DNA from: Chiloscyllium plagiosum
Taxonomy: Eukaryota
Reading direction: 5' to 3'
Length of the DNA: 64,000 bases
Assembly (NCBI RefSeq): GCF_004010195.1
Contig: NC_057753.1
Coordinates: 692,330 to 756,329, forward strand
This document shows positions 3,049 through 58,195 of this stretch, one piece after another; position 1 is the first letter of the stretch; each line of letters opens with the position of its first letter. Position numbers and translations under genes: made by a program. The notes under the pieces were generated by a model. The model was not told the DNA's origin. It was given only the letters and a program-made list of their open reading frames with translations, and did no database searches.

Positions 3049-3227
3049 GCAGGTTTAATTTGAAGCACACTAGCTTTCGGAGCGACGCTCCTTCATCAGG
3101 TGACGCTCCTGATGAAGGAGCGTCGCTCAGAAAGCTAGTGTGCTTCCAATTAAACCTGTTGGACTATAACCTGGTTTTGTGTGATTTTTAACTTTGTACA
3201 CCCCAGTCCAACACCAGCATCTCCAAA
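3049..3227. mobile_element. Short non-autonomous palindromic element carrying inverted hammerhead motifs, inserted in the CR1 copy
   Basis: 13-bp TSD ttatgttaagatg at 3036-3048 and 3228-3240. Long inverted repeat spanning ~3050-3158. Confidence 0.85.
3068..3102 (-). ncRNA. Minimal type-I hammerhead ribozyme motif (intact)
   Basis: Minus strand reads CAC-CUGAUGA-A-GGAGC(GUC)GCUCC-GAAAG-CUA^GUG. Core boxes are intact, stem I is CAC/GUG, stem II is 5 bp, and stem III is a loopless palindrome (AGCU). Confidence 0.75.
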
Positions 3228-5569
3228 TTATGTTAAGATGAGGCGTGAAGGCTCAATTAGAGCGCTTGAGAGTTAGAAGTTAGACAGGAAAGATCTAAAG
3301 AGAGCGCGAGCAAGAGCCAGGAGGGGAAGTGAGAGATCATTGACGGATAGGATCAAGGAAAACCCTGATGCGTTCTGTCGGTACATCAGGAATAAAAAAA
3401 TGACTAGAGGAAGATTATTACCAGTTAAGAACAGGAGTGAGAAGTTGTGCGTGGAGTTCGAAGAGGTAAGAGAGGCACAAAATGAATATTTTTCATCTGA
3501 ATTCACACAGGAAAAAGACAACGTTGTCGAGGAGATTATTGAGATACAAGCTATTGGAATAGGTGGGATTGAGTTTCACAAGGTGTTAACAATTCTGGAA
3601 AGTGTGAAAATAGATAAATCCTTTGTGCTGAATGGGTTTTCCCCCAGGATTCTTTGAGAAGCTAGAGAGGAGATGGCAGAGCCTTTGACTTTGATCTTTA
3701 TGCCGTCATTGTGTACAGATGTAGTTCTGGAAGACTGGAGGATTGCAAATGTTGTTCCGTTTTTCAAGAAGTAGCGTATAGACATCTCTGGTAATTATTG
3801 ACCAGTGAGCCTTGCTTCAGTTGTGCGTAAAGTGTTGGAAAATGTTTGAAGAGCTAAGATTTTTAATCATCCAGACAGGAATAAGCTTGTTAGGGATAGT
3901 CAATACGGCTTTGTTAAGGCGGGGACGTGCTTCACAAACCTTATTGAGTTCTTTGAGAAGGTGACCAAACAGTTGGATGAGGGTAAAGCGGTTGATGTGG
4001 TGTTTATGGATTTCAGTAAAATGTTTGATAAGGTTCCCCATGGTAGGCTATTGCACACAATAGGAAAGCATGGGGTTGAGTGTGAATTAGCGGTTTGGAA
4101 AAGAAAATGGTATGCTGAAAGAAGGCATAGTTTGGTGGCTATGGGAAATGTTCATCCTGGAGTTCAGTTACTACTAGTGCATCGCACGGGTCTGTTTTTT
4201 CGCCACTGTTGTTTGTCATTTTTATAAGTGACCTGGAGGAGCGCGTAGGATGATGAGTTAGTAAATTTGCAGATGATCCTAAGGTCGGTCGAATTGTCGA
4301 TAGTGCTGAAGGAGGGTGTAGATTACATAGGAACATAGATAAGCTGCAGAGCTGGGTTGAGAGGTGTAAAATGGAGTTTGATGAGAAAAAATGTGAAGTG
4401 ATTCACCTTGGAAGGAGTAACAGGAATGAAGGTTATTGGGTTAATGGCAAGATTCTTGGTAATGTGATGAACAGAGAGATCTCGGTGTTCATGTAGATAC
4501 ATCGCTGAAAGTTGCCAATCAGGGTGATAGGATTGTTACGAAGGCATGTCATGTGTTAGCTTTTATTGCTAGAGGGATTGAGTTTCGGACCATGAGATCA
4601 TGCTTCATCTGTATAAAACTCTACTGCAGCCGCACTTTGAGTATTGTGTACAATTGTTGTCACTGCATGATAGGACGAATATGAAAGCTTTGGAAAGGCT
4701 TAAGAGGAGATTTACTCGGATGTTGCCTGGTCTAGAAGGGAGGACATACAAGGAAAGGCTGATGGACTTCAGGCTGCTTTCCTTAGAGTGAAGATGGTTT
4801 AGAGGTGACTTAATTGAAACACATAAGATAATCAGAGGCTTAGATAGGGTGGGGAGTGAGAACATTTTTTTCTCGAATGGTGATGTCTAGCACGAGGGGA
4901 CATAAGTTGAATTCAGGGGTTATAGATCTAGGAGAGATTTCAGAGGTAGTTTCTTTACTCGGATAGTAGTAAGGGAGTGGAATGCACTGCCTGCAACAGT
5001 AGTAGATTCGCCAACTTTAAGGGCATTGGATAGATATATGATCATGGAGTAGTGCAGTTTAGATGGGGTTCAGATTGGTTTCACAGATGGGCGCAACATC
5101 GAGGGCTGAAGGGCCTATATTGCGCTATAATGTTCTATGATCTCGGTAAAGAAAATGTGGTCCCTTTCCCTGACAGGAATGTCCTAAAGTTATGAGGTTA
5201 AATCAAACACTGAATGGAAAGAAACCCATTTGTGTTTACTGGGGACTCAAGTGATTCTTTGAAAAAACCGTCTAAGTAAAGGAGATATTAAGTGATGCCT
5301 TTTACGATCAAGATAGCTGTCAGGTTCGAGGTATTTCGCTCCAGGAGTGATTCTCCCAGAATCACTGTGTGTACGTTATACAACAGCTAGGTACGAATGC
5401 TAATTTTTGGAATAAACAAAAGCTTGAAGTTATGGGACTGAAGAATATGATTTCTGCTGCGTAATAGGCGTTAACTGTTCATTTCTACTCCACGATGGGA
5501 CTTTGACAACAGTGATAGAAAATCACAGTGCGAGGATGGGGAATTGATTTATGTGTGCTACCATCCTGT

Positions 5570-5890
5570 ACAACGGGTTGGCGAGAACTAGGGAAACAGT
5601 CTGAGGATTCGAGTTGGACCATTTCGGAGGCATTTAAGGAGACATTTCTTCACCCAAAGTGTGGTGAGCATGTGGAATTCATTACCACAGGAAGTAGTTG
5701 ATACCAAAATCTTGAATGTGTACAACAGACAGCGTGATATTGCACTTGGAATGAATAGAATCAAATGTTATGGGGAGAAAGCAGGACTGGGCTATTGAGT
5801 TGAAAGATCAGCAGAATCATGATGAATGCCGGAGCAGGCTCGAAAGGCCGAATGGCCTCCTCCTGTTAATAACTTCTATGTTGCTACGTT
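5570..5890 (+). mobile_element. CR1 LINE 3'-end fragment
   Basis: RHFFTQSVVSMWNSLPQEVVD-like coding remnant and tail ggctcgaaaggccgaatggcctcctcctg. Confidence 0.8.
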
Positions 5891-6689
5891 CGATACAGGA
5901 CAGTTTCTAGTTCAGTAAGGAGCAACCGTGCTCCCTCAAGTATATTAACAAGGCTTCGAGATCCCTTTTGCCTCTGGTGTGCAAACACACTTCTGTTGAC
6001 TTGTCAAAACTAAAATGACACCAAAATGAAAAGCTTGTTCAAAATTCTCTCCCGACAAATATATAAGATGAAACTGCCTCGTTATCAGGAAATTTTGGCA
6101 ATAACTCCTTAAACTTTGGAGACATGGCTAAATTTTAGAATAGGAAGATATGTTTTAATAAGTGCACAAAGAATAGAAAGAGGGGTTAAGAAATAAATAG
6201 ATTTATGGAGGAGTATTACATAACCTCGATTCTTGGAGGCTGGATGGACATTGATTCGTTTTGGGACAGTTTAAATCAGGAATTCTCCAGAGGCAAGTAC
6301 ATGTATGCACATTTCTCATATGATGTGAGCTCGAGGTAATTTTAGAGTGAGATTTGAGTGAAGCTATTAGAGCTTCAGGACAACTAAGGGAATTATGAAG
6401 TCGACGGATGGCTTAACATGGCAAAATTTAAGTCACAAAGCAGACAGGTGTTCCAGGATTGGTACTTAGATTTTGTTTAAGACACTGGTAGAAGATTAAT
6501 TGAAGCCCCAAAGGTAGAAATGGTGATTGGCCAAGAATGCATTCTCAAGATTGTGCAAATTCATGACTTAATGTTTGAACAATAAATTAGCTGAGAGTTA
6601 AAGATAGGCAGAAGTTAGATATAAAAACAGGTGGTCTTAACAAGGAAGTCCGGGCCAAACATTTAACGATTGATAACATCATGAGAAGC

Positions 6690-7879: not shown

Positions 7880-8194
7880 GAGCATACCCTTCTCGACCAG
7901 TCATCAGTCTCCTCTACTCTGAAGAACAGAGAGCAAACGGATTTCTGCAGCTGGTTTGTCTAATCAACAAATTCTATCCTGAAAACATTGCGGTGAAATG
8001 GCAGAAGAATGGAAATGCCATAGGTTCTGGCTTTACAACCACATCTCCATTGAAAACAGCGAACAACGACTTTAGCTCTACCAGTTTGCTTAAAGTGCCC
8101 CTGCAGGAATGGAGCAGCGGTTCTGTGTACAGTTGTCAAGTTTCCCATTCTGCAACCAGCAGTAACCAGAGAAAGGAAATTCATTCAACAGCCG
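7880..8194 (+). CDS. IgNAR: IgNAR constant domain C1 exon (105 codons)
   Basis: Acceptor ttttag|GA at 7878-7879 and donor G|gtaaaa at 8195. Translation (G)AYPSRPVISLLYSEEQRANGFLQLVCLINKFYPENIAVKWQKN...LLKVPLQEWSSGSVYSCQVSHSATSSNQRKEIHSTA has the C1-set C..FYP..W..YxC motifs. Confidence 0.96.
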
Positions 8195-8709
8195 GTAAAA
8201 AAAGTTGAACAATCTCACAAACTCATATTAATAATCATAATCACTTGCATAATAAATATTAGACTAGAAGGAACATTATTATGTTGTCTTATTGCTGAGG
8301 ATGAAGCATTCTTGAAATAGTTGCAGTGAGTGATATCAATGGCAATTTGTAGTCCAGAGTAATGTTACTCCAAAAGTGATTGGGAATGACCCAGGTACCT
8401 AAAACTTGTCTTCAAAAAAAATATAGTGGTGTACAACATCTGATATTATTTTCCTCTGCTCTGTGTAAGTCTTTATCTCAGTCGCAAAAGCTGATGGAAA
8501 TAAATAGAAGCCTTGTAAGAAGACAGAGGAAAAGAGACAGTGATATAGGCACTATGGCGAAAATAACAGAACGATAGAGGTTAATGTACAATCTCCTGAG
8601 ATGACGGTTTTAAACAAAGTTCCTTATTCTCGATATTAATTATCTTTATAAAACAAGGTAATTGCACGCTTTAACTAATTTACCAAGTCAATCCAAGGCA
8701 TCAAAAATA

Positions 8710-8884
8710 GTTTCGAGAGTGTGTGGTGGTGGAAAAGCACAGCAGGTCATGCAGCATCCGAGGAGCAGGAGAATCGACGTTTCGGTCAGGAGCCCTTCCT
8801 CGAATGCTGCATGACCTGCTGTCATTTTCCAACACCACACACTCTCGACTCTGATCTCCAGCATGTGCAGTCCTCACTTTCTCC
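8710..8884. mobile_element. Short palindromic hammerhead-family non-autonomous element (central deletion removes ribozyme cores)
   Basis: 11-bp TSD catcaaaaata at 8699-8709 and 8885-8895. Inverted arms. Partial minus-strand GAAGGGC...CCGAAACGUCGAUUC lacks CUGAU. Confidence 0.75.
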
Positions 8885-9274
8885 CATCAAAAATACTTTG
8901 TCAATGCCTATACTTCATCAGAAAGGAAACAACTTCAACAATGAGTAATTCTACTGCTAACACTAAGAAGGATTTAGAGTTTTCTGCTGATGTGTGGAAC
9001 CAAGCATTTGTAGAAAAGATGAATTGGGAGGATGCTGTTCAGACAAATTAAGCGGAGAGACAGAGGAGTCTGATGAAACAGAGACAGAAATTTGTTTTTG
9101 GATGGGAGACAACAAACATGCAACGATATGCTTTATTGAAACCTTCCTGATATGGATCGCCAGAAGGACAAGACAAATGTTGTTTTTTCAGACAGTACAT
9201 CCAATGACGTATCAGGGATAATGATCTCAATAATCATTGTGCTTCAATTTCAGCAACCCTCATGATGTGGTAAT

Positions 9275-9910
9275 TTTTCTCTGTCTCGCCATCTTTATCT
9301 TGCTATCTCACGCTCTTTTATTACTGCCAGACTCACTTCGTCTCTGTCTATTGGCTTGTGTCTCTCTGCTAATTCTGACTACTCTCGTTCTGTAACTTGA
9401 TATTTCTCTTCACTGACCATATGTATATATGTCTTGGTTTCTCTGTTTCTCCCCTTCTCGAAAATGTTTATTCTTTCATGCTCCTGTTTCTGCAGATTTT
9501 AATAATTCTTTGTGCATCATTGACTGTAGCTGATTATGCTTCTCTTCTTCCTTGCGCCAATTGGTATTTATGCCTCCATTTTGTCTTCTTTTCCTTGGTA
9601 CTCTCTGACCATCTTCCGCTCTTTCTGGCTGTCTTTTCTAATCTGTTATCTCTAGATCCCATTTTCTGAGCTTTATGTCTTTATATATATCCATCTGACA
9701 ATCTCAGTTTACCTATTCCTACATTTGTCTTACTGCATATCTTAATCTGCATTTGTGTGTGCATCATTTTGAACTAGTTTGAATTTTCTTCTCTGCTGAT
9801 TGTTTCTCTGTTTCTTTCTTTCCTGCTTACGAAATGGATCCACATCAATTCCTTCATTCCTCAAAATGCTTCTCTCGCTTTCCTTTTTGTTTATTACTTT
9901 CTTAATTGTA
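9275..9910 (+). repeat. Degenerate pyrimidine-rich (CT/TC) low-complexity tract in the C1-C2 intron
   Basis: About 630 nt dominated by tctct/ctttc/tgtct words on the sense strand. Confidence 0.6.
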
Positions 9911-10115
9911 TTGGCTTATACAAATTATAAAGCAAATCAACAAAAGTGAATAAAGCAATGACTCTTCAAATTCTTTCTTGCTGTATCTGTGAGAAAGACA
10001 TTCGCAATTTATCGTACAATCTCTTGGCACTAATTTTGGCATTCTTGTTACAATCCTGGTTACATTATTATTGGAACATGGAAAAGAATTTGAAACTCTG
10101 ATTTCTCACCAACAG

Positions 10116-10412
10116 AGATCGCTGTATTACTAAGGGATCCTTTGGTTGAAGAAATCTGGATCAATAAAAATGCCACTCTGGTTTGTGAAGTGCTTTCTAC
10201 AGTTTCAGCTGGGATAGTCATCTCTTGGATGGTGGATGGAAAGGTACGGAATGGAGGCGTTCAAACTGAAGCAGCTATTGAAAACCAACGTCTGACCATC
10301 AGCCGCTTGACTAGCAGCGTGGATGAGTGGCAGAGTGGGGTGGAATACACATGCTCTGTAAAACACAATCAATCATCAACCGCAGTATCAAAACGAACAA
10401 GAATGGCAAGAG
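10116..10412 (+). CDS. IgNAR: IgNAR constant domain C2 exon (99 codons)
   Basis: Acceptor ccaacag|AG and donor G|gttggt at 10413. Translation (E)IAVLLRDPLVEEIWINKNATLVCEVLSTVSAGIVISWMVDG...EWQSGVEYTCSVKHNQSSTAVSKRTRMAR. Confidence 0.96.
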
Positions 10413-10488
10413 GTTGGTAACCAGAGATATACATTTATATATGTCATTTTATCAATGACGAAATACTAAAATTGTAATTCTATTACAG

Positions 10489-10806
10489 TCAAACCAGAGA
10501 AGCCACATCTCCGCCTCCTACCTCCAACACCAAACGAGGTTCAAAACGGCACCTCTGCTACTCTCACATGTTTGATAAGAGGATTCTATCCTGACAAAAT
10601 ACGAGTTAACTGGGAGAAAGACGGAGCTTCTGTCAGCGCGAACATCACCATTTTCCCCACTGCTCTGGAACAGGACCTGACCTACAGCACACGGAGCCTT
10701 CTCGTTTTACCTGCAGTGGAATGGAAGAGCGGAGCAAAATACACCTGCACTGCCTCGCATCCATCTTCACAGTCCACTGTGAAAAGGGTCATCAGCCAGA
10801 CGAAAG
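10489..10806 (+). CDS. IgNAR: IgNAR constant domain C3 exon (106 codons)
   Basis: Acceptor tattacag|TC and donor G|gtaagg at 10807. Translation (V)KPEKPHLRLLPPTPNEVQNGTSATLTCLIRGFYPDKIRVNWEKD...EWKSGAKYTCTASHPSSQSTVKRVISQTK. Confidence 0.96.
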
Positions 10807-12357
10807 GTAAGGACAGGGTTTTAGCAACCATTCCCACGTTATCACTTTGTGGTAAATATCAACGCAACATGAAACCATAACCAAACATTCCAAGGTTCCA
10901 ACAACTTTAAAATGCACAAAACCTCTTGAAATGAAACAATTTTAAAACATTGCACACGGGTTGACAGGAGAAACAATAATATCCCACAAGCACGTTGGCT
11001 CAAGCAGTGTGAAGTCTGCTGAATCAAAGAACGGAGAGGGCCCTCTTGTGGCACATTGGCAGTTTCTGTGCACTGGACGAAAAGGCGCACGTTTACTTCC
11101 CACCTGCTCCAGAGTGGTGTCTTGATCTATCTGGACAGGTTGATGAGGAAAAGAGGTTAACTAAATATTTATATTGAGAAAAAAGAGTTTCATTGCACGA
11201 ATAAGTCTTGAAGCCTTTTTTTTGACAATATTGAATGGTGATGAGAGGGAGATTAGGTCTCCATGATTTCGTGTCTTGTTCGCTTCAGTCACTGCTTCAC
11301 CTTTGAGTCCAGCTTGAGTGGTTGCTGACAAACAACTCAAAGGTACACAGAAATGTAAATATTTCTGAAGAGTAGGACGAAAGCTCATGAATTAATTTGT
11401 ATACTTCAAAGATTATATTCTTCTGTTCTCTTCCCCCAGAACGTCGCAGGAACTGACAAATAATTTTGCATTTGATGATAATAAGTCATGTGAACTAATG
11501 AATTGGCTTTAATTCCGACTGTCTGCTTAGGTACTGGTTTGCACCCGACTGTGTTATGGGCCGGGCAAAAACCCATTCATGTCTTTAAAAAACGAGTCAC
11601 AATGCTTCAACTTTGGAACACTGATTTCTGGTACACAGGTCTGTGATCAAGGGAATGGATGAACGGGCTGTGACAAACTTCTGGTCATGCACTTGCCGAA
11701 AATTAGCGCGTAGGTTTCAGTGGAACAACTGATTTGACAAATGGATGACAGAAAGTCACATACAACAAAGGAAAAGAGCAAAGTTGCACTGAGCAAACAC
11801 TGCTCATAGATGTGGTAACAAACACTGAGCATGATAACTTCCGTTTGGTGAGCAACCATGCACTAAAATAGCAGGCATTGAGAAGCCCATGCGATAATTT
11901 CGGCCTGCTGATGATTCTTTGAAAGTTAAAGTGGAATAGACTTGTATGATTTCCATACAGTCCCTTTGTTCTATCTTTCATCTGAGGAGTCTTTCTGAAA
12001 ATAAACGTATTTGCACTCCTGCAAAGGGACAAATGCGAGTCTTACATATTTCTTGTGGAATGGGCTGTCTATATTCCATTTCTCCCGCTGATTTACAAAG
12101 ACTGATCAGTCAATGTGAGATTCCTAAAGGAAACTTGCATACCAATACCGTTTGTATATCAATATGGAAATCCATTTTCCTCTTCACAGTAATGGAAGAC
12201 ATTCACATGAAAATGTGATAGTTTTCAATTCAGAACTGCGATGCAAAGGTGTCATTTTTAAAATCATCTCAGCTATACACGCAAAATTCTGAAATTGTTT
12301 GCTTTAATGAGTCATTGTTAAAACTCTAATTTCTGTTTTTAATGCGAGGAGATGGTT

Positions 12358-12670
12358 TTAGATTATATTACTTCCAGTGTGGAAACAGGCCCTTCGGCCC
12401 AACAAGTCCACACCGACCCGCCGAAGCGTAACCCACCCATTCCCCTACATTTACCCCTTTACCTAACACTACGTGCAATTTAGCATGGCCAATTCACCTG
12501 ACCTGCACATCTTTGGACTGTGGGAGGAAACCGGAGCACCCGGAGGAAACCCACGCAGACACGGGGAGAATGTGCAAATTCCACACAGTCAGTCGCCTGA
12601 GTCGGGAATTGAACCCGGGTCTCTGGCGCTGTGAGGCAGCAGTGCTAACCACTGTGCCACCGCGCCGCCC
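12358..12670 (-). mobile_element. HE1/V-SINE (tRNA-derived head, V domain, CR1-like tail)
   Basis: Reverse complement of gggcggcgcggtggcacagtggttagc..., the V-domain gtgtggaatttgcacattctccccgtgtctgcgtgggtttcctccggg, and tail ttgggccgaagggcctgtttcc. Confidence 0.92.
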
Positions 12671-13796
12671 ACAGCCGAAATTTCATTCGGATCAGTTTTC
12701 CCACAATCCCGTTCACCGTCTATCTATTATTACTGAAAAGCTTTGAAGAAGTAATTATCACCAAGACTCATCAGGTGGACCTGATCTTGTATGTTAAATT
12801 GGGCACAATTATTTAATCAAGAATTGAAAATATACCACGACTGAGCTCAGGTTGTCAATCGAAAAATTCATGTTAACAGTCTGCTTGGTTGAATGGAGAT
12901 TTAGTGGAAGAGATTAACTCTGGATGGCTGAAGACAAGCAAGTATTTAGTCTTAAGAGCTTGGATTGTGAGACAGTAATATTAATCAACTCGGGAGTAAT
13001 TTCAGCAATATCCTCTTCACCCAAACAACCTCGCAGAGGCACTGGCATAATTGAAGATCTGCATAAGCTTTATAGTATGCATACAAAATAAAATTAGGCC
13101 ATTAGAGCTGTACAATAGACAAGGAACATGAGTCATCACAAGAGGTATTGGGACTTTCAGAAATAACTAGTAAAGGTACTGATATTTATGGTAATGATAC
13201 AAGCAGAACATTCAAGAACCTTCTTTTCATTGGTATTTTCCGTTATGCATAAATAATGTAACTACTATTGTATTCAGACCCACGATTTAGCTTGAAGACA
13301 TCTAAAAGCATGTTTTCCCCGTCTAATGCGTCCCCTTAACGTTATCTCGATTCTGATAACTGATTCTGTTAGTTTTAGCAACTCCCAGTATCAGAGTTGA
13401 GCTGCAAAAGACATGTAGTCACAAAATTTTATACTTCCTCACTTCACACTCTTCAAAAATAGTTAATTAAAAGAATGAAAAATGCATGCCCTTGATTGAG
13501 AGTGCCCTTGATTGGACTTGAATTATGCAGTAAGTATCCTTTTTTTTACAAATAAAAGGCTCTGCTGACGAATCGGGACAGCAAACTCAGTTTAAAGAAT
13601 GCAATCAATGAAATGCAAGTTGATACCAAGTAAATGTCTCCAATGGTTGGTCGGTCACAGTGCAAGTAATTTTAGCTGTTGAACAGCAGACACTGATGAT
13701 GCGTTTTTTGCTCGTCTGGTATTGGATTCTGTCGAACTACGTCCATGTGACAGCAACTATCTTCTGGCATCCGTAATTGCAATAGTTGAAAGTGTG

Positions 13797-13925
13797 GAGA
13801 AAGTGAGGTCTGCTGATGCTGGAGATCAAAGTTGAAACTTTATTGCTGGAACAGCACAGCAGGTCAGGCAGCATCCAGGGAACAGGAGATTCGACGTTTC
13901 GGGCACAGGCCCTTCTTCAGGAATG
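13797..13925 (-). mobile_element. Short non-autonomous hammerhead-bearing element, single arm
   Basis: 12-bp TSD gttgaaagtgtg at 13785-13796 and 13926-13937. Same family as the 8710, 50551 and 57990 elements. Confidence 0.85.
13889..13924 (-). ncRNA. Minimal type-I hammerhead ribozyme motif (intact)
   Basis: Minus strand reads AUUC-CUGAAGA-A-GGGC(CUGU)GCCC-GAAAC-GUC^GAAU. Perfect 4-bp stems I and II, canonical GUC triplet, loopless ACGU stem III. Confidence 0.8.
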
Positions 13926-14213
13926 GTTGAAAGTGTGCAGTATTCGAATGGAGACAATAGGTATCAATATACCCAAGGCAGAGCAATTTCCAAATTGTGC
14001 AAGAATACATCGCAAATATTACTGAAGTCATATCCATAGCAGTCAGGGCGAATGCAACCAACACGAACAGGAGAGCACAACATGTAATTCACCAAGTCGA
14101 AACTATCAACTGTGACAGATCACAGTAAGTAAAATTATTCCCCATCTCCTGAAGTACTTTGGAATTAATATCGATATTGCAGCCTGAAAACATGCATTCC
14201 TTTCTCGTTCCAG

Positions 14214-14534
14214 ATGAATGCCATCAGCCAGATATTTCTGTCAACCTACTGAAACCTGCGTTTGAAGAGATTTGGACACAAAAGACAGCGACCATCGTTT
14301 GCAAAATCGTTTACAGCCAGTTAGGAAACATCAATGTTGTCTGGCAAGTGAACGGGTCTGAGAGAACTAAAGAAGTCGTGACGGAAAATCCTGATTGGAA
14401 TGGAAGTAAGTTCACCATTGTGAGCAAACTTAAAATCGTGGCGTCAGAGTGGGACAGCGGTGCCGAATATGTTTGCTTGGTCGAAGACAGTCAATTACCA
14501 ACACCAGTAAAAGACTCTATCAAGAAGGCAACTG
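14214..14534 (+). CDS. IgNAR: IgNAR constant domain C4 exon (107 codons)
   Basis: Acceptor tttctcgttccag|AT and donor G|gtaagt at 14535. Translation (D)ECHQPDISVNLLKPAFEEIWTQKTATIVC...EWDSGAEYVCLVEDSQLPTPVKDSIKKAT. Carries the extra N-terminal Cys of the C3-C4 linker. Confidence 0.96.
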
Positions 14535-14799
14535 GTAAGTAGGAATAGTACTGCAATAACATCAAAATTGAATCGATTTCAGAAATCTGAAATGAAAAAG
14601 TAATGTTCTGTAGAAACTGAGGAGGGCTGGCAGAACCGATTGAGAGAAAAATAGGGTGAACCTTTCTAGTCGACTATGTGTCTTTCCAAAAATAATAGTT
14701 AATGTTACTATGAGATGAGCCTGATTCATAAAATTGTCAAATTAAAAAAAATCTGTCAAATCATTAATGCTTTACATTAAATGGTCAGAAGTTAGCATC

Positions 14800-15020
14800 G
14801 GCGAGGTGGATCACTGGTTTGCACTGCTCCCTCCCAGCGCCAAGACCCGCATTCAATTCCAACTTAGGCACCGTCTGTGTGGAATTTTCCCATCCTCATG
14901 TCTGCGTCGGTTTACTTCGGGTGCTCGGGTTTTTTTCCCACAGTACAAAGATGTGCAGATTGGGTGGAGGGGTCATATTCACATATGCGCAGTGTGGGTG
15001 GATGGGTCATGGGAAAAATA
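14800..15020 (+). mobile_element. Degenerate V-SINE in the C4-C5 intron
   Basis: Diverged head (ggcgaggtgg...actggtttgcactgct) and V-domain (tgtgtggaattttcccatcctcatgtctgcgtcggtttacttcgggtgctcgg). Confidence 0.7.
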
Positions 15021-15166
15021 AGGGACGTGAAATGCTGTAGCATTTACAGATATTCGCAAAGTCTTACAGATAGGAAATATTTTATCTATCACATGCATTA
15101 CTTAACAAAGAAATTGTGACACAGACATAAGATGGTCTCAGTTAAGCAATCATCCTCTCTTTTCAG

Positions 15167-15549
15167 ATGGTCAAATGGGTCCTCCTCAGGTTTATCTCCT
15201 GCATCCATCGACTGACGAGATTGACACTGAGAATTCAGCGACTCTGATGTGTCTCGCCACCAGCTTTTACCCAGCTGACATTTACATTGGCTGGATGGCC
15301 AATGACACGCTCTTGGATGCCGGGTACCGGACGCACATGGATAGTGAGAAGGGGAATGGTTCCAACTTCGTGACCAGCAGGTTGAGAGTCACAGCGGCGG
15401 AATGGAACAGTGACATCACTTACTCCTGCTTAGTGGGACACCCATCCCTCAGCCGGGAGTTAATCAGAAGTATTAATAAGTCTCGTGGTAAACCGACATC
15501 AGTTAATGTTTCAGTCGTACTAAGCGACATAGTTAAATCTTGCACGTAA
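15167..15549 (+). CDS. IgNAR: IgNAR C5 exon with contiguous secretory tailpiece (membrane form splices out at 15487; tail GKPTSVNVSVVLSDIVKSCT*)
   Basis: Acceptor ctcttttcag|AT. Translation (D)GQMGPPQVYLLHPSTDEIDTENSATLMCLATSFYPADIYIGW...YSCLVGHPSL. Internal donor G|gtaaac at 15488. Tail has an NVS sequon and a penultimate Cys. Stop TAA at 15547-15549. Confidence 0.96.
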
Positions 15550-22484: not shown

Positions 22485-22499
22485 GCAGAAAGCTTGTTT

Positions 22500-42640: not shown

Positions 42641-42690
42641 AGATAGAATGGAAATTTTCTCTATTCTCAATAGAAAAACTTAAATAACAA

Positions 42691-42769
42691 TGGGGTGGCA
42701 TGGTGGCTCAGTGGTTAGCACTGCTGCCTCTCAGCACCGGGGTCCCAGATTTGATTCCAGCCTCGGGCG
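42691..42769 (+). mobile_element. SINE tRNA-like head truncated by the assembly gap
   Basis: tggtggctcagtggttagcactgctgcctctcagcacc...gatttgattcc A/B boxes run into the N stretch. Confidence 0.75.
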
Positions 42770-43089
42770 NNNNNNNNNNNNNNNNNNNNNNNNNNNNNNN
42801 NNNNNNNNNNNNNNNNNNNNNNNNNNNNNNNNNNNNNNNNNNNNNNNNNNNNNNNNNNNNNNNNNNNNNNNNNNNNNNNNNNNNNNNNNNNNNNNNNNNN
42901 NNNNNNNNNNNNNNNNNNNNNNNNNNNNNNNNNNNNNNNNNNNNNNNNNNNNNNNNNNNNNNNNNNNNNNNNNNNNNNNNNNNNNNNNNNNNNNNNNNNN
43001 NNNNNNNNNNNNNNNNNNNNNNNNNNNNNNNNNNNNNNNNNNNNNNNNNNNNNNNNNNNNNNNNNNNNNNNNNNNNNNNNNNNNNNNNN
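42770..43089. other. Assembly gap (320 N)
   Basis: Run of N characters. The true length is unknown. Confidence 1.
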
Positions 43090-43517
43090 GAACACCATGG
43101 GCCTCACCTTGCTCAGCAGCCTCCCGTGTGGCACCTTATCAAAGGCCTTTTAGAAGTCTAGATAGACCACATCGACTGGGTTTCCCTGGTCTAACCTACT
43201 TGTCACCTCTTCAAAGAACACCAACAGGTTTGTCAGGCACGACCTCCCCTTACTAAATCCATGTTGACTTGTTCTAATCCGACCCTGCTCTTCCAAGAAT
43301 TTAGAAACCTCATCCTTAATGATGGAGTCTAGACTTTTACCAACAACAGAGGTTAGGCTAATTGGCCTATACTTTTCCAACTTTTGCCTTGATCCTTTCT
43401 TGAACAAGGAGGTTACAACAGCGATCTTCCAATCACCCGGGGCTTTCCCTGACTCCAGTGACTTTTGAAAGATCTCAACCAACGCCTCCGCTATTTCCTC
43501 AGCCACCTCCCTCAGAA
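43090..43517 (-). mobile_element. CR1 LINE RT fragment
   Basis: Minus ORF GDWKIAVVTSLFKKG...YRPISLTSVVGK...SQHGFSKGRSCLTNLLVFFE...VDVVYLDF. Confidence 0.92.
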
Positions 43518-44399
43518 ATTAGTGATTCAAATCAGGAAATCTTCAATATAGCCTTTGCATAGAAAGATATACATTGACAAGAAAGCTACCTTTGTGCATT
43601 TCCCCTTTACAATGTCATGGACATAACATGCACTTTGATTCTGTCAGTCGCAAAAGCGGTTCAAATTCCGAAAACTAGGAATGGTCTCAAGATTATCATG
43701 GCTGCTCGGGAGTGAAACTGCCAAAACTGGATTAATGTTTCAAAGCTTGGATAAGCATTATTTGGGGTATTTACTTTCCTGGTAGGTATCGCTAACTTGA
43801 ACATAATTGAAAAAAAAATTCTAAGGCCCTTGGAAAAATATTTTTAGATGAGCCATTGACTTTCCGAGAAACACCAGGCAACAAATAACTTACATTGCCA
43901 CTTGCAAAATATCTTTAGTTGTAGTTAAAATATGAATTGTATCCTCTATGTCAATACAATGTAATCTTTAAAAACTGATATCCACCAAAGTTACAACGTG
44001 AATTAATTTATGCCAGAGTGTCAGAAGCGACATTGTTTTAAAATGGGCAGCTTTCAGGACAGAAAAAAAAGTTCTTGTGCCACCTTAGCCATTAATAAAA
44101 TGCATGTTTTGCTTTGGACCTTAAAATTTGTTCTCTATCTTCCTTACCATATAGTTTCATGAGATTTGCAGACAAGGCTCTATTTGGAGTGATTTATTTA
44201 AATGAATAGTCGCAAGCAATTAAAATGTCTGTCGTCTTGCTAAGTCTTTGCAATTCATTTTCATCGCATGCTAGGTTTTTATTTATCTTCACTTAGAATG
44301 TTTCTCATCTTCTATCTTAAAAGCAAAATTCTTTGTCTATCAACGCAGTGTTAAATTTCGTCAACATAATACGCTGGATTATAATAGATAAGGGGAGAG

Positions 44400-46921: not shown

Positions 46922-49371
46922 TTAATGAGCGTATGTCAAGTAATATGGGAGCCAAGGAACTGATGATAGCTGGTCAAATTATTTGTTCCGTTCCTCCATG
47001 AATTCAGATAATGTTTAAGTTGAATCTTGCATAAATTCAGCCAATTTGGCAGGATATGGTATAACGCTACCTTGCAAATATCTCGCCGACTTAGTTGTTA
47101 TCATTCTAGTAATCCATTCAATTTTGAGAGAGCTATCTCCAGGTTTTGAATAGTGTTCATTGCGAAAAAACCTCGACTCGAGAATGCCCTAGGCATAATT
47201 CAAAATCATGACATCAAGGTGACATGGTTACGCAAAAATCTATTCTCAAGTTGTTGCCATTTGGACAGGTTGGGTTAAATAGCTCCTCCCCATTCTATAA
47301 TTTACAGAAGACATTGTCTCTGGAACCTGACTGCCAAAATTTAAGTCTAATTACAAGAATTATTTTTCCTTAAAGTTTTGGATTGCACTTCCAATGACAA
47401 TGGAAGGGCAGTGACCAGAAATAATGCAACATTGGCGAAATTCTCCACAGCAAAATATCACTTGCTCTGTATATCTGTCCATTTTACTCATTGTTCTTCT
47501 CGCCTGCCATTCATCATACAGTCCCGACCGTGTGGAAGCTGAGCATTCGGCCAATGACACCCACAACCGACTGTCTGAAAGTAACCCCGCCGACCCACAC
47601 TCTAATATCCCTGCAAGCCTGCATTTCTCATGGCTAATCCATATATACTTTATTTGATTGTGAGAGGTACCAAAGATTAAAAGTGAAGAGGGGACAATGC
47701 GCAAACTCTACACAGACAATCGCCCAAGGTTGAAATCGAATGCTTGTCTTCAGTGCTCTTCGGCAGGAGTGTCATCCTCTGAGCCGCCATTGAAGTGGCA
47801 CTTAATAACCGAGAAACAAAATGGCCTTTGTACCTTTGCACCTCTACTAAATCTGTGGTCGTTTTTTATCTATGATCTCAATCTGTCTCTCTTTCTTTAT
47901 CTCGCTGAATGCTGCACAAAACGTTGTGCCTCGGAACTGGTTCACACATTTCTTAATTCCAGCAACATTAGTACAGGACAATATTCATTATCTCAGGGCC
48001 GGGCAGGTGAGATCATCACAGATCTTTTCAGAAAGAATGACCCATTCTGCTTGAAAATCTCACTATTTCCAATCACAAAGTCATCAAAAGTATCTGCCTC
48101 AGTCAGTAAGTCCGAATTATTCCGCATTTCGTAGCTTCAGGCCCACTCACAAACTGTGTCCCTATCGCTCTCCGACAATCTACTCGTTTCTATCTTTCTT
48201 TGCAATTCGCCTCTTCATTATTCTTCAGATTCATAACCACAGAAAACGTTTGATCAAAAGGCTCGAGACAAGTGAATTAAGTTCAACATGACGATTATGC
48301 AACTTCTTCCGACTCGCTGACAGAGCACAATTTACGTATATACATGCACAAAAGAGTTGAAATATCATGGTACCGCCTTGCTCATATAACCTCAGACAAG
48401 TGTCAATGATTTTTCAGTGATGAAACATGTAGAAAACGTTAAAGGATTTAGCAATCTGATTTTTTTTCTCGCATATAGAAATATTTCTCACAACTCCGCC
48501 GTGTAAGCTATCCCCAGCCAGTACACAATCGTCATATAACTAATGACTGCAAGTTAACTTTTTTTTGTACTTGCATCCGTTTCCTGACCAGTTAAACAGC
48601 CAAGTCACGAGGGAGTTGCATATGCAGAAACTGCGCTTGCCTTCATTGTTTCTGTAACTTTATATAAAAAGCAACAGATCACGCCTCAAGGCAGCCTGTC
48701 CGGCTCCTTTTGAATACATCAGATGTTTTTCGCTCTCTGACGTTGAGGAACAGTTTCTACGTCTCAAATGAAAATAAGAAGTTTGATTTTTGTCTGTAAG
48801 TGCTGGCCCTGATCAGAAAGTGTGCGCTCCAGATAGAATGTGATAAAAAAATCGAAATACGCTCCACAAATGCATGTAATTCTGGACGTTGATTTTGAAC
48901 ATGTGCACATTTTACATAACGGTGCGATATATTAACTGATACAGAAATAAACTGAGACCAGAAGGGCATCCGGGAGCAAATTGAAGATAGAAAATGCAAG
49001 ATCTAGCAAAAGAAATATTTGACATGCAATTAGATCTTACTTTGGAATAGTTGCATGTTGGCGCTTGAAATTAATCATTCAAAATCTCTGCCTCCAAGAT
49101 GGTCTATAAAGAAGAATCACTGGAAAACTTTGCATTTATTTTCCTTTCTCTAAACTACCTGTACAGCACTTTGCTTACTGGGAAGGCAGGGCTAATGTAT
49201 GAAGGAAGATTAGAATGATTCGGTTTATATCCACGGTTTAGAAAAATGAAGAATGAATGAAGCCAAGCATTGAATATTTTAAGGAACGAGTTCAATATTA
49301 TTCTGACAGACAAAGGGGTAAGAGAGTTTGGACAAAAGCTGGAACAGGCAGATTGTTTTTAAAATTGCGAC

Positions 49372-49682
49372 AGTGTGGAAACAGGCCATTCAGTTCTGCA
49401 AGTCTATGTCGACTTTCCGAACAGAACCCCACCCACACCCACACGCAACCCTTTCCTTGTGAGGTTACATGTCCCAGGATTAATGCACCTCACCTACGCA
49501 CCCTTGAAATTTATGAGCAATTTAGCCAGTACAATCCAGCTAAACTCTACCTCTTTCAACTGTGGGAGGAAATTGGAGCACGCGGTGGAAACCCACACAG
49601 ACATGAGGAGAAGGTGTAATCTCAACACCGACAGAACCCGAATGCAGAATTGAAACCAGGTCCCTGGTTTTGTGAGGCAGGA
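49372..49682 (-). mobile_element. Degenerate HE1/V-SINE
   Basis: cagtgtggaaacaggccattc...tgtgggaggaaattggagcacgcggtggaaacccacacagac...gtgaggcag aligns by eye to the young copies. Confidence 0.75.
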
Positions 49683-49769: not shown

Positions 49770-51770
49770 TATCTATTCATTTGTTGACTATAGGTGTCGC
49801 TGGCTGATCAGTACTTTTCCCATCCCTTTTGCCCTTCAGAGGTCGTTGATGAGCTCTCGTCTTGAACCACTGCAGTTAATTTGCACGAAGTTCACACACA
49901 ATCCATTAGGGAGGGAATTCCAGCACTTTGAACAAACGAGAGTGAAGGAACGGATATATATTTCCAAGTCAGGACAATGAATGTCTGGGAAGGAAATTTG
50001 AACGTAGTGGTGTTCCGATATCCTTAAATTTACAGATCGAAATTTTTTTGGGTATGGAGAGTGATGTCTGAAGATGTGTGGCGAATTCCCACAGTGCATC
50101 TTGTTAATAGTATACACTCCTGCTACTGAGCATCGGCAGTAAAGTGAGTGGATGCTTCCGAATACGCTGCCAATCAATTTGGCTGCTTTGTTTCCGTTGG
50201 AGTCATGTTTCTTGAGTGTTTTGGGGGCTGCACTCATCAAGGCAAGTGGGGGGGGGGGGGGGGGGTATTCCAAGATACTCCTGACCTGCAGCTTTAGATT
50301 CTGGGTGGGCTTTGAGGAGTCAGGAAGTGAGCTACTTGCCGCAGTATTTTTAGCCTTTGACCTGTTCTTGTGGCATTTATGTTCCTATGCTGAATCCAGT
50401 TGAGTTTCTGGTCAATGTCAACCCCCACGATGTTGATGATGGTAGACACAGTGACAGTAACACCATTGAATGTCAATTGGTGGTGATTAGATTGCCTCTT
50501 ATTGGTGCTTTTCATAGCGTGGCATTTATTTGACACGAGTTTTATTTCCTAGGTAAAAACAATGACTGCAGATGCTGGAAATAACAGTCGTGGATTAGTG
50601 GCGCTGGAAAAGCACAGCAGTTCAGGCAGCATCCGAGGAGCGGGAAAATCGACTTTTCTGGCAAATGCCCTTCATCAGGAATACACCCAGAGTGCCTGAA
50701 GGCCACCCTCCTCTCATTTATCTCTCCACCCTTCACGCACTCTGCCTGTATTCCTGATGAAAGGCTTTTGCCCAAATCGTCAATTTTCCTGCTTGAACTG
50801 CTGTGCTTTTCCAGCGCCACTAATCCATGAATGTTATTTCCTCCTTGTTAGCCCAGTATTTGTTTCAGATCTTGTTGCATTTCAAGGTAGAATGCTTCAG
50901 TACGTGAGGAGTCACGGATGAAGCAAACCATTTTGCAATCATCCCGAATATTCCCACTTCAGACCTTATGATGGAATGAAGGTTATTGATGAAGTGGCTG
51001 AAGATGATTGGGCCAAGGACAGTAGCCTGATGAAATCCTGCAGAAATGCCTTCGACCTGAGATTACTGAACTTCCATAGCCACGAGCATCCCCTGATGTT
51101 CCAGGTATGCCTTCAACCAGTTGGGCTTTGCCCCGATAGCAATTGATTCAATTTTTGCTCGGACTCATTGATGACAAACTTAGTGGGATGCTGCCTCGAT
51201 GTCAAGGACTGTTACCTTCTCCTCACCTTTGGAATTAAGATCTTTTGTCCATATTTGAATCAAAGCTGGAATGAGATCCGGAGCTGGGTGGCCCTAGCGG
51301 GTACCAAACTGAGCATGACTGAACAGGTTTTTGCTGAGCATGTGCTATTGTAGCATTGTTGGTGGCACCTTCCATTGCTACACTGATGATCGAGAGGAGA
51401 CTGATGGGACTGATTTGTGCAGCTTATTGTGTACAGGACATACCTGGGCAATGTGCGACCATTGTTGGGTAGACCCCAGTGTTGTACATGTGCTGGAACA
51501 GCTATGCTACGGAAGGAGTAAGTTGTGGAGCACTAGTCTTCACTACGATTTCCGGAATGTTGTCAGGGCCTATAGCATTTGCAGTATCGAGTGTCACCTA
51601 TCGCTTCTTGATATCACGTGGAGTGAATCGAATTGTCTGAAAATTGTATCTGCAATGCTGGGAACATTGGAGTACGCAAAGATGGATCATCCACACAGTA
51701 CTCCTAGCTAAAGATGTTGCAAAAGCATAAGCCTCATCTTTTGCTCTAATGTGCGAAGCGTTTCTATCGA
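49770..51770 (-). mobile_element. Degenerate non-LTR retroelement (CR1/L2-superfamily-like), approximate bounds
   Basis: Minus-strand remnants NIVGVDIDQKLNWIQH...RTGQRLKILR and VYTINKMHC..SP, and SKCWNSLPN. Interrupted by a G18 run (50248-50265) and the 50551 element. Confidence 0.6.
50551..50841. mobile_element. Palindromic hammerhead-family element with two inverted, mutated ribozyme motifs
   Basis: Inverted arms. Minus motif CUGAUGAAGGGC..GCCAGAAAAGUC (50647-50682) and plus motif CUGAUGAAAGGC..GCCCAAAUCGUC (50750-50785). Flanking direct repeat ttatttcct. Confidence 0.75.
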
Positions 51771-54700: not shown

Positions 54701-56563
54701 TTTCTCATTAACATGTGATTATTTAATTTCGAATCTTCAAGTGAGCATAACATTGGTAATGCTGAGAATATTTTTATGCTTCTATGATTAGAGAAAACAT
54801 AACACACCTGCACACATGGAGACACCTGCCTGGAGCGGGAACTCCAAGGAGATATATCATTTCTCATCATCTGTCTCTCTTTCATTGACTGTCCGACATC
54901 CCAGAAGCAGATCATTCAGTGTTTAAATATGTTTTTATCGTTTCCAAACTCAGTTTCAAATGAATTTGATCAATGCACAAGACCACTTGGAAGGATTCAG
55001 GTTAACATGACGTGGCACGGAACAAAACATTTGAAGAGCAGGTCGATTTACATCTGATACCTATACTGCAATTGAAATTGATACTGCTCTTTCTACACGT
55101 TATCCTATGTAATTCGACTGATCTGAATACGCTTTGACTTGATATCACTCAAGTCGACATAATTTGTCTTGAAGTCTCCATCTGCTATTAGCAGTGGTGA
55201 GCGGAGAGGCAATTGGAAAAGCATACCATCCTTTGACCACAATATGTTTACTGATTTAATTGCTCACTTTGTTAGCTTTCAAGTTACACTATGTTTGCTT
55301 GTGAAATGCAAAGAACATTTGAAATATCCTATAAACGTTTACTTGAGACATTTTCAGCGCTCCAGCATGTCACTTCTTCAGGGTGTATATACATTGGAAT
55401 ACAAAATCAAGTTATGCAAGTTGCGAGCATCACAGATTCAATGGTGAAGATGTGCCACAGTCTGATGAATTGGCATTTCACCATCTCCTGTAGTACACCA
55501 AACAGGATTTCAACAAGACACCCAATACCTGAAAAATAATTGTGTCTGAATATTCCAAACAAACATTTAACATCATTAGTATTTTGATTCCATTTCCATC
55601 TACTTTTACAGCCTTCTTTGCTCAACATTCAGATTCACAACTTCAGATGATGAACATTGTCATTAATTTCGAAGCTTATTTTTCCTCAGAGTGTTCTTAA
55701 TTCTTTCAGAGTGACTGACTTCATTTGAACCGTTTACTGCCCATTTTCATTCACTGTGGAACAATGTTATGTCTCGTTTGTGCAATAACCCCAACAACTC
55801 TTTTTTTTTGTCTCATTGTGCAATATGATCTTCTGTCACCCTAGTCTCGAAACCTTTCCTCGAGCTTCCGTTTTGTTTATGTCATTTTCATTGTTCGGCA
55901 CTTTGCAGACTCCAAGACTCAATACTGGATTCTATAGTCATGACTCGTTTTGTCCCTTCACACCTCAATGAACACCCATTAAACATCCCTATTTCTCTTT
56001 CAACATCATTAACAAATGGTTTGTTTTTGTACCAGGCCTCGTCATTACCTGTTGTCTTCGCATCTTCTCTACTTCTTTCAGAAACATTAAATAAAAAAGC
56101 CTTTCTATACCGGTGAGTTTTGAAGAACAGTCACACTCAACTTGAAACATTAACTTTGTTTCTTTCTTCACAGGTGCTGCCAGATATGCTGAGTTTAATC
56201 CAAAAACTGCAACAGTTATTTCATAACGCTTCTTTGTCAGTCTACTCATCTTTCCAATACACTGCACGACCGATGGTAAATTTGGGGGAATTTCCTCATC
56301 TGGCATTCTTAAGTCCCAATGACAAACGCATTGTACCAGCCTGGATCAATCGATGCAAGGATTCACATGGTTGATGGGAAATGGTGAATCTTCTCTGCCA
56401 TACCATTGTAGCGACACACATTGACAGTATCAGGAAGCATCCCAGTGCACATTGAGGTATTGCAGTATTGAAACATTTTACACAGAGTGAATTCAAATGC
56501 TCAACGACAGTCAGTTGAACAAAAGACCCTCTTTTATTTCAGTTTGTTTTTCGAAATAAACAG

Positions 56564-56811
56564 GCGACTGACTGTGTGGAGTTTGCACTTTCTCCCCGTG
56601 TCTGCGTGGGTTTCCTCCGGGTGCTCCGGTTTCCTCCCACAGTCCAAAAGACGGGCAGGTCAGGTGAATTGGCCATGCTAAATTGCCCGTAGTGTTAGGT
56701 AAGGGGTAAATGTAGGGGTATGGGTGGGTTACGCTTCGGCGGATCGGTGTGGACTTGTTGGGCCGAAGGGCTTGTTTCCACACTGTAATATAATCTAATC
56801 AAATGTAATCT
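56564..56811 (+). mobile_element. HE1/V-SINE, 5'-truncated
   Basis: V domain and tail present. TSD aataaacag at 56555-56563 and 56812-56820. Confidence 0.9.
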
Positions 56812-57989
56812 AATAAACAGTTATTTCGATTACATGCCAACAAATGCCTAAAATAACATAATATCAGGAAGCGACAAAAACAAAACCGACATTGTGTGCA
56901 AATTTGCATCAGTTTGCAGATTATTTTGTGGACATGGAGAATAATACAAATCCTCAGCAGACCATGAAAGTCTGGGTGTGATTGCCTGTATAAATATAAC
57001 TGCCTATATTCTCTGAATGCGCAAATACTTGTGGGGGTATTGAGTGCAACATTCCTGAGCAAAACTTGCTGAAGACACGGACATGTTGAGATTTTTTGAC
57101 AAGGTTTGCAGCTCCGCTTGTGGAGCAGGTTGTTGTTTTGCTCGTTGTGCTAATGGTTTTGCTTTCAAAAGTTTCATTGCCATGCTCGGTAGAATTATCA
57201 GTGAGCCTCCAGTGAAGTATTGCTATTCTGTGATCTTGCTCCTGACGTGCCTTGGTTTGTTGTGGTGGGTGGCATCATGTTCGGTTCGACTTCTGAGAGG
57301 TTCATAAATGGGTTCTAAATCTGTATGTTTCTTATCGGAGTTCTGTTTTCACATCCAGGGATATCGTAATTACCATGTGTGTTTGTTTGACATGACAAAG
57401 CATGGATGAATTTTTCAAGTAGAAATGGATAGACAGACATGCAGGCAGGTAGGCAGACAGAGGATGCGACTTTTTTTCCTGTGACAGGTTATAAACAAAA
57501 GGTTCAACAGCTATTTGGTTTGTACTACTGACTAGTTTTAAACATTGGAACCTCAGCTGGGAACATCCCAAAGTGCAGGAAATAATATGGATTGAAAAGC
57601 CTCAATGGGCAGGACGTTCATCCTCTTGAAGAGTTTTGAGTGCCGCATGGAATCTATTTTTGGAAGTTAGAATTCTCGCTCAGAACATATAGAAAATGAT
57701 GAACAAATGATTGAACAATAACATGCTGATGGACAAAATAAATATTATAGAATTGCAAAAAGTGCTTTGAAAGCATCTGCTTTGAAGTTCATGCAGAAAT
57801 GTGGAAAATAGTCAGCGATGGCCGGGTTATGGAAATACTAAGTTTCCGATTTGCACATTGATACGTTTGAACGAAAGTAAGTGTGCAGAGATCGACGGAG
57901 AAGTCAGAAATCAGGTTACAGAGATATTGTTATTCATAGCTGACTTTTGTACGATGGGATGAGTCGATAGATAATAGATAGATAGATCG

Positions 57990-58195
57990 AGGCAGAAGTG
58001 GCTACTGCAGATGCTGGAAATTAGAGTAAAGATTAGAGTCGTGCGTGAAAAGCAAAGCAGGTCAGGCAGCATCAGAGGAGCAGGTAAATCGACGTTCCTT
58101 CCTGATGTAGGGCCTTTGCCCGTAACGTCGATTTTCCTGCTCCTCGAATGCTGCCTGACCTATTGTGCTTTTCCAGCACTTCTCTAACCTCGATT
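57990..58195. mobile_element. Palindromic hammerhead-family element, core mutated
   Basis: Plus-strand CUGAUGU-AGGGC(CUUU)GCCC-GUAAC-GUC has two core substitutions. Inverted arms gcaggtcaggcagcatc/atgctgcctgacct. Confidence 0.7.

Follow-up and report, generated by a model that had tools for sequence, protein, structure and literature searches.

What are the short repeats with hammerhead ribozyme motifs that lie scattered through an IgNAR locus of the shark Chiloscyllium plagiosum, and what put them there? The window considered here is the whole stretch of 64,000 nucleotides (RefSeq assembly GCF_004010195.1, contig NC_057753.1, positions 692,330 to 756,329 of the forward strand; coordinates below count from its first letter). 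A first-pass annotation had picked out six small non-coding elements in it and had read them as retrozyme-like parasites mobilised by a Penelope element of the same window. The short elements are, more probably, the 5′-truncated 3′ ends (pieces of the pseudo-long terminal repeat, or pLTR) of at least three families of Penelope-like elements (PLEs), written into the genome by a Penelope reverse transcriptase (RT)/GIY-YIG protein from uncut RNA. Such hammerhead-bearing short repeats are likely a kind of sequence already described in other animals, and the case an ordinary one.

All six elements of the annotation were found; they are dispersed and non-coding, measure 129-283 bp, and are named below by their first positions. 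Grouping by BLAST and nhmmer places 3049 and 22292 in one family (A) and 8710, 13797, 50551 and 57990 in another (B). Three further units, additional to those of the annotation, form a family C that is related to B: the score of the whole-unit alignment of B with C was reached by 0 of 500 shuffles. The elements, with their target site duplications (TSDs), are as follows.

3036-3048 and 3228-3240: left and right copies of the 13-bp TSD of the 3049 element, from the flanking-repeat search
3049-3227: family-A head-to-head element; short arm 3049-3102 (minus), long arm 3108-3227 (plus); arms 49/51 identical
8710-8884: family-B head-to-head element; 11-bp TSD at 8699-8709 and 8885-8895; 33-bp one-sided tail
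13797-13925, minus: family-B single-arm element of 129 bp; 12-bp TSD at 13785-13796 and 13926-13937
17272-17474: decayed family-C head-to-head element (inverted pair); degenerate hammerheads on both arms; TSD not significant
22292-22484: family-A head-to-head element; 8-bp TSD at 22284-22291 and 22485-22492; 37-bp one-sided tail
24485-24625, plus: family-C single arm with a degenerate hammerhead
50551-50833: family-B head-to-head element; 9-bp TSD at 50542-50550 and 50834-50842; 34-bp one-sided tail
56115-56222, plus: decayed family-C single arm
about 57990-58200: family-B head-to-head element; no TSD of at least 6 bp; 34-bp one-sided tail

The short elements are real insertions. Exact direct repeats of 13, 11, 12, 8 and 9 bp, with an AT content of 50-82%, flank five of the six (3049, 8710, 13797, 22292 and 50551); the annotation had given TSDs of 8-13 bp to four elements, so its lengths hold and its count was one short. 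At 1483 random sites searched with the same geometry, repeats of at least 8 bp occurred at 3.4%, of at least 9 bp at 1.0% and of at least 11 bp at 0.13%. For 13797 there is also an empty site: a contig of organism C (one of three organisms, A, B and C, whose public sequencing runs were used), with 255 letters on its shorter side, skips 141 bp. This equals the 129-bp element plus one 12-bp repeat, so 13797 is a true insertion with target duplication.

The internal build of the elements is as telling as their edges. Five of the six, and 17272 as well, consist of two arms joined head to head with their 3′ ends outward. In the list of short-range inverted repeats of the window, the six longest come from the five named pairs. 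In four of the five pairs among the named elements one arm overhangs the other on one side, by 37, 33, 34 and 34 bp. The hammerhead motif is placed close to the arms' inner (5′) end or right at it, and the inner junction is different in each of the five inverted elements. Matching bases are found at some of the joints: by eye, the short arms of 50551 and 22292 end where eight and four target bases, respectively, match the template, and nine bases of the right-hand TSD of 13797 match the upstream continuation of family B. All of this has precedents among PLEs. An adjacent inverted, 5′-truncated copy and a one-sided tail of 30-40 bp are standard PLE features (Craig 2021; PMC8557442); a 31-bp tail, TSDs of 8-10 bp, head-to-head orientation and 5′ microhomology have been described (Arkhipova 2013; PMC3846280); and the D. 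virilis Penelope has a 34-37 bp repeat (PMC2377424). Like the insertion units of endonuclease-bearing PLEs, the window elements thus have head-to-head arms, a tail on one arm, TSDs of 8-13 bp and junction microhomology, and the suggestion that inverted arms reflect Penelope-type integration was a good one, since the one-sided tail, variable TSD and head-to-head arms match the published anatomy. Unlike those units, the window elements are reduced to 130-280 bp without an open reading frame (ORF), and one of their families, B, is extremely abundant.

Two details of single elements can be added. The arms of 22292 are only 52/74 identical (49/51 in 3049, 48/52 in 8710 and 91/104 in 50551), which means that the insertion is much older or that a single event drew on two different templates. 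At the inner junction of 3049 (3100-3108) a few bases repeat a portion of stem II/loop II in reverse, which suggests a template jump.

The motifs themselves were sought with a strict descriptor of the minimal type-I hammerhead in which the extra base after A9 was optional. It matched the window three times (a mean of 0.003, or 3 matches in 1000, in Markov-simulated windows), and allowing one core mismatch returned the same three matches with none added.

3068-3102, minus: intact minimal type-I hammerhead motif; C3 at 3099, predicted cut after 3071
13889-13924, minus: intact minimal type-I hammerhead motif; C3 at 13920, predicted cut after 13893
32118-32157, plus: intact minimal hammerhead motif at the end of a Penelope element; C3 at 32121, predicted cut after 32154

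Stem I has 3 bp and stem II 5 bp in the 3099 motif, which has the extra base after A9 and a palindromic stem III; both stems have 4 bp in the 13920 motif. All three intact motifs carry one unpaired base between 9 and 10.1, and stem III is palindromic and without a loop III throughout (ACGU in 13920 and 32121, AGCU in 3099). The pair G10.1-C11.1 is G-C in two of the three and G-U at 32121. The minimal hammerheads of metazoan PLEs were described in 2014 as having an extra base after A9, G10.1-C11.1, a palindromic stem III and families rich in compensatory changes (PMC4209133). They occur in Xena, Poseidon and Neptune elements of fishes, and most motifs were single or lay in opposite-strand pairs 100-700 bp apart, an arrangement ascribed to truncated PLEs (Cervera and De la Pena 2014; PMC4209133). 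The window motifs resemble them in being type I, with no loop III, a palindromic 15.2-16.2, a base between 9 and 10.1 and a short stem I, and in falling into several families per genome, as single or opposite-strand motifs; the 32121 motif departs from the consensus in closing stem II with G-U instead of G-C. The annotation had rightly called them PLE-type minimal hammerheads, their features agreeing with the 2014 consensus, and the three sets of stems I, II and III that it listed are present in the sequence.

Intact motifs are the exception within the elements. Among the 11 arms of the six named elements, two have one (the left arm of 3049, and 13797), and the remaining nine are truncated within the core or mutated. 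In 8710 the left arm is cut within the core and the right arm has no hammerhead, both arms of 22292 are truncated within the core, and the arms of 50551 reach 24 and 51 bases upstream of the core with both hammerheads mutated; in 57990 the right-arm hammerhead has two core changes and the left arm begins in stem III. Across all 17 arms listed, 14 are truncated, mutated or without the motif. The statement that motifs usually come as an inverted pair therefore holds for the arms (five of six elements) and fails for intact motifs, which no element has twice.

Where the arms begin bears on the kind of RNA that was copied. Counted from the first base of the core, the starts of the arms lie at about -51, -24, -5, -3, -2, -1, +4, +6, +8, +23 and +40, and the product of the predicted cut would begin at +29 or +30. 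None of the 11 begins there (the nearest, read by hand, lie 6 bases before and about 10 after) and ten contain bases 5′ of the predicted cut, so the templates were likely uncut. In free-energy folding the hammerhead is the minimum for the 13920 motif only, and in cofolding of two copies the stem-III dimer is never the minimum for any of the three motifs, a result that says little for stems so short. When an inverted element is folded over its full length, the result is a long hairpin (-56 to -155 kcal/mol) that buries the motif, and since paired motifs lie on opposite strands a dimer in cis is not possible. Among 11 Rfam matches up to E 5 there was no hammerhead family, but the Rfam models miss this minimal form here and the result speaks neither for nor against a ribozyme; the top matches were microRNA (miRNA) models on the fold-backs, all below gathering score. 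As a separate observation, family-B sequence upstream of the hammerhead in 50551 is pyrimidine-rich (50703-50753 and 50679-50702), and in the left arm an AG stands 17 bases ahead of the core, an arrangement that resembles a splice acceptor. In the D. virilis Penelope an intron ends at helix I of the hammerhead (PMC4209133).

The annotation had also argued from covariation among the stem sets to selection on RNA structure. Outside the core no alignment among family A, family B and the Penelope end is possible, and the three are therefore examples of one fold rather than a test of covariation. In an alignment of B and C (11 rows), 74% of cells are paired, against 20-41% with slid partners, and two-sided changes affect 4 of 10 pairs, two of these in stem I; the covariation score was reached by 36 of 500 shuffles, and the pattern is suggestive only. 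The base at 13890 matters here: it gives a U-U mismatch in stem I in each of the four other family-B arms of the window in which the 3′ strand of that stem is present, and the mismatch base accounts, by contig depth, for about 66% in organism A, 93% in B and 31% in C. The 4-bp stem I is thus particular to the 13797 type, and the commonest family-B allele in organisms A and B carries the mismatch, contrary to neat covariation. What stands of the argument is its qualitative point, which concerns the parent elements and was published in 2014; statistical support did not materialise.

Family B could be followed in many more copies by matching one 841-bp stretch against the public sequencing runs. 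This drew 22,770 contigs in organism A, 22,587 in B and 9,074 in C, nearly all of them on the 129-bp unit. Summed contig depth on the unit is 2.3-13.9 million, compared with about 20 on the left flank in organism A; the sum is no copy number and is read only as 'very many' copies. Family B is extremely abundant. The two ends of the unit behave differently among the matches listed. At the tail end (13796) the family sequence gives way abruptly to flanks that are unrelated (406 and 432 contigs, 497 reads). Behind 13925 the loose ends share their first letters, in 199 contigs of A, 193 of B and 249 RNA reads of A, with agreements of 0.38, 0.38 and 0.66, so many family-B copies continue upstream into a longer parent, and the annotation's term 'non-autonomous' is no more than a possibility. 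The same matches contain opposite-strand joints of about 13875 to 13910-13923, carried by 1-2 contigs each and present in organisms A, B and C alike. A reading of the loose ends at 13843/13844 as tail-less ends was rejected: the consensus behind them stays family-like, and they therefore mark subfamily divergence. In RNA of organism A, 2761 of 12.96 million records matched the family-B stretch, in both directions, and 97% of these run on into unlike sequence. They show no pile-up of starts or ends, in a poly-A single-cell library that is blind to small cut or circular RNA; no read of this library fell on the IgNAR exon, so strand is uncalibrated.

A mechanism can be sketched after the PLE of the anole, whose protein nicks and extends both strands at AT-rich sites, whose reverse transcription has two starts bounding the tail, and which inserts RNA with a dead hammerhead equally well (Frangieh 2024; PMC11167929). 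By analogy with that system in vitro, the shark PLE protein would nick the two strands of an AT-rich target at positions offset by a few bases. Each of the resulting 3′ ends would prime reverse transcription at one of two starts about 35 nt apart near the RNA's 3′ end, and both complementary DNAs (cDNAs) would stop early, mostly in or just before the hammerhead, and be joined head to head, often over a few matching bases; in 13797 one cDNA would have been joined directly to the other target strand. The hammerhead would be inherited from the parent element and kept by selection on active parents, with neutral decay of the genomic copies; where read-through transcription covers an inverted pair, a long hairpin would hold the motif fast.

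Several observations weigh against truncated PLE ends as the explanation. First, two elements depart from the pattern: 57990 has no flanking repeat of at least 6 bp, and the long arm of 3049 exceeds the short arm by 68 bp at its 3′ end, outside the 33-37 bp range of the other pairs. Second, no parent came to light: no RT/endonuclease ORF was seen upstream of families A, B or C in the window, and searches for copies beyond it were blank, family-B patterns having 0 matches among viral contigs and 0 among metagenome contigs, and the 101-residue frame through 50551 having 0 relatives among 1.84 billion proteins and so no read-through link to a parent ORF. Third, the model of priming on two strands comes from in vitro work with a single lizard element. 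Fourth, two results fit a short template equally well: seven of the 11 arms start between -5 and +8 of the core, and, among the matches listed, loose ends behind 13924 (116 contigs, agreement 0.32; 209 reads, agreement 0.40) look like copies that end exactly at the edge of the hammerhead.

That fourth point brings in the alternative that survives best, a possible though unlikely one, which differs only in the source of the template. Families A, B and C would be self-propagating, non-autonomous solo-pLTR elements with an internal promoter, whose short RNA starts just upstream of the hammerhead and is copied, without cleavage, by a PLE protein in trans. Besides the seven arm starts and the heterogeneous ends at 13924, it gains from the summed depth on the 129-bp unit, about 10^5 times that of the flank (again no copy number), and from the literature: the pLTR of the D. 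virilis Penelope contains an internal promoter (PMC2377424), other sequence is mobilised in trans by nothing more than pLTRs (PMC3846280), and non-autonomous PLE derivatives are known (PMC8557442; bioRxiv 2026.07.22.740005). It has trouble with the many family-B copies that run on into a common upstream sequence, with inner junctions unlike in all five inverted elements of the window and, weakly given the poly-A single-cell library, with RNA reads that nearly all lead into unlike sequence and never pile up. A more specific proposal, which we regard as doubtful, makes solo pLTRs into replicons like short interspersed elements (SINEs): a short RNA would begin at the 5′ edge of the hammerhead, two uncut RNAs would be joined by the palindromic stem III, and a dimeric PLE protein would copy them from both nicked strands and so build the head-to-head, one-tailed units. 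If this were true, the hammerhead would be a pairing and packaging signal, not a cutter; some 10^5 natural junctions per genome would then make the role of the PLE hammerhead directly testable.

Truncated PLE ends, the reading we prefer, must also be set against a retrozyme cycle, for which the Penelope copies in the window are the relevant evidence.

30704-32233, plus: 5′-truncated Penelope/Poseidon-type element; RT 30704-31417, in-frame stop at 31418, stop at 32135, end at 32233
57095-57384, minus: older Penelope/Poseidon 3′ remnant; last GIY-YIG codons and pLTR end, with a degenerate hammerhead

In the first of these (30716 in the annotation) a thumb/GIY-YIG part runs up to the stop at 32135 and is followed by the pLTR end to 32233. 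RVT_1 matches at E 4e-11 and GIY-YIG at E 0.0026, short of the Pfam cut-off; shark homologues are 64-76% identical, and the first 262 residues of a 705-residue relative are missing. By eye there is no extra cysteine motif between RT and endonuclease, which, by the clade rule for PLEs (PMC8557442), indicates the Penelope/Poseidon clade. That an RT/GIY-YIG Penelope ends here in a hammerhead motif, as annotated, is confirmed by the RVT_1 match and the intact motif at 32121. A 7-bp repeat around the element was rejected as a TSD, being within chance (13%). The second copy is absent from the first-pass annotation. In both, the motif sits in the pLTR at the end of the RT/GIY-YIG ORF, and in the first the ORF stops inside stem II (32121-32137), so that the last codons double as ribozyme core. 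Three of the six shark homologues listed share the core-encoded peptide pattern (P0003 and P0004 end with it, P0001 reads through). At both Poseidon ends, 32145-32233 (plus) and 57177-57085 (minus), a start codon overlaps the GAAA box and the frame stays open to the element end. The two peptides of 29-31 residues are identical at 13 of 29 positions, with second codon positions best kept (22/29), and probably represent the N-terminus that the ORF of a tandem copy would have, the pLTR holding the first codons, as in PLE insertion units.

A profile built from 19 PLE homologues, after two chimeric sequences among the 21 had been set aside, matched the window only at the two Poseidon pieces, and the C-terminal half of the Penelope gave 360 candidates and 0 confirmed loci among metagenome contigs. 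Compared with the Penelope end, the last 60 bases of families A, B and C scored no higher than 330, 35 and 197 of 500 shuffles, respectively, and the whole units no higher than 181, 117 and 180; the alignment of B with C, with its 0 of 500, is the positive control. With its truncation, its in-frame stop and an end no more similar to the short families than shuffles are, the 30716 element is unsupported as a mobilising partner, contrary to the annotation. It is a dead copy of a fourth family showing the same layout, not the parent. Elasmobranch genomes, we presume, hold Neptune-type PLEs with 3′ ends like those of A and B. As an aside, pieces of the 30716 ORF also occur in two public gene models from sharks, one of a MAP3K7 isoform and one of an EYA3-like isoform (P0007 and P0021), probably as exonised or mis-annotated repeats.

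Retrozymes consist of tandem units, mostly with canonical hammerheads, and produce circular RNA (Cervera and De la Pena 2020; PMC7229834). Animal retrozymes have been interpreted as non-autonomous PLE derivatives and occur, in tandem, in one chondrichthyan (Li, Clavereau and Pollet 2026; bioRxiv 10.64898/2026.07.22.740005). PLE hammerheads cleave as dimers according to a review (PMC6765202), and the 2026 preprint found cleavage in one of nine frog dimers (10.64898/2026.07.22.740005). The window elements share with animal non-LTR retrozymes a short, non-coding, hammerhead-bearing build and a proposed origin from PLE pLTRs, and dispersed monomers occur there too. The proposal that they are retrozyme-like parasites, released by self-cleavage as dimers, circularised or not, and mobilised by the 30716 family, can further point to the existence of intact motifs and to a few head-to-tail family-B joints in organisms A and C among the matches listed (where more than 22,000 contigs matched in A and in B). 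We consider it very improbable. Retrozymes are tandem, with a complete motif in each unit and unit-length circular RNA, unlike the window copies, which are single or head to head (none of six tandem), carry minimal rather than canonical motifs, and have ends that ignore the cut, none of 11 arms starting there and ten holding sequence 5′ of it. Paired motifs lie on opposite strands, buried in their hairpins, and the family ends fail to align with the Penelope end above shuffles.

Miniature inverted-repeat transposable elements (MITEs) of DNA-transposon type, with the arms as terminal inverted repeats, would account for near-palindromes between direct repeats in five of six elements and deserve next to no credence: TSD length varies (8, 9, 11, 12 and 13 bp) instead of being fixed, the ends are not symmetrical (one arm always overhangs, by 33-68 bp, and the side of the overhang and the position of the centre vary), and 13797 has a TSD and an empty site without any inverted repeat. 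An equally negligible chance attaches to intronic hammerheads co-opted to regulate IgNAR transcripts, which takes its cue from the location of 8710 and 13797.

7882-15546, plus: IgNAR host context; five Ig C1-set constant-domain exons, from domain matches

The best solved relative of the first constant exon is a 'Novel antigen receptor' chain, 4q97 (E 5e-47), so the IgNAR label given at first pass is sound. Both elements lie within IgNAR introns, 8710 in the one after the first constant exon. Against co-option, the motif in 13797 runs antisense to IgNAR, neither strand of 8710 holds a complete core, and organism C lacks the 13797 insertion at the corresponding site. The ends of the elements contradict the retrozyme cycle with an in-window partner, the MITE reading and co-option alike.

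Other features of the window are recorded for completeness. Over 13928-14338, intron and exon also attract several less similar contigs (49-74 differing letters) from organisms A, B and C, which likely come from paralogous IgNAR loci; one organism-C contig among them is also without the 13797 element. A dispersed repeat of 310 bp lies at 12358-12671 (minus), 28291-28600, 37939-38249 and 56561-56798, with weaker copies at 14799-14958, 42693-42769 and 49370-49680. Four copies are 92-94% identical among themselves, and we take the repeat to resemble the transfer RNA (tRNA)-derived HE1 SINE of sharks; no tRNA genes were found in the window. Decayed fragments of long interspersed elements (LINEs), which we assume to be of CR1/HER1 type, occupy 3277-4758, 20610-20936, 22847-23489, 38767-39174 and 43150-43518, with RVT_1 matches at 3850-4224 and 43153-43518. 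An assembly gap of 320 N (42770-43089) separates a SINE head from a LINE fragment. Small hairpins at 1370-1405 and 40780-40870, scored by miRNA models below the gathering threshold, have no BLAST kinship to the element families.

As to what is new, sharks are not named in the main text portions of Cervera and De la Pena 2014 (PMC4209133) or in two of its supplement files. No paper describing these shark families as ribozymes was found in a literature search whose scope lay outside Dfam and Repbase; the kind of motif and the insertion anatomy are already known for PLEs. The practical consequence is one of annotation. Shark genomes are littered with PLE end pieces, which are easily mistaken for new ribozyme elements, miRNA hairpins or MITEs; masking should treat them as Penelope-derived. 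The junctions of family B, in turn, form a large data set for models of two-strand priming, microhomology joining and start-site choice, and they bear on two open questions about PLEs, the role of the hammerhead and the origin of the inverted pLTR.

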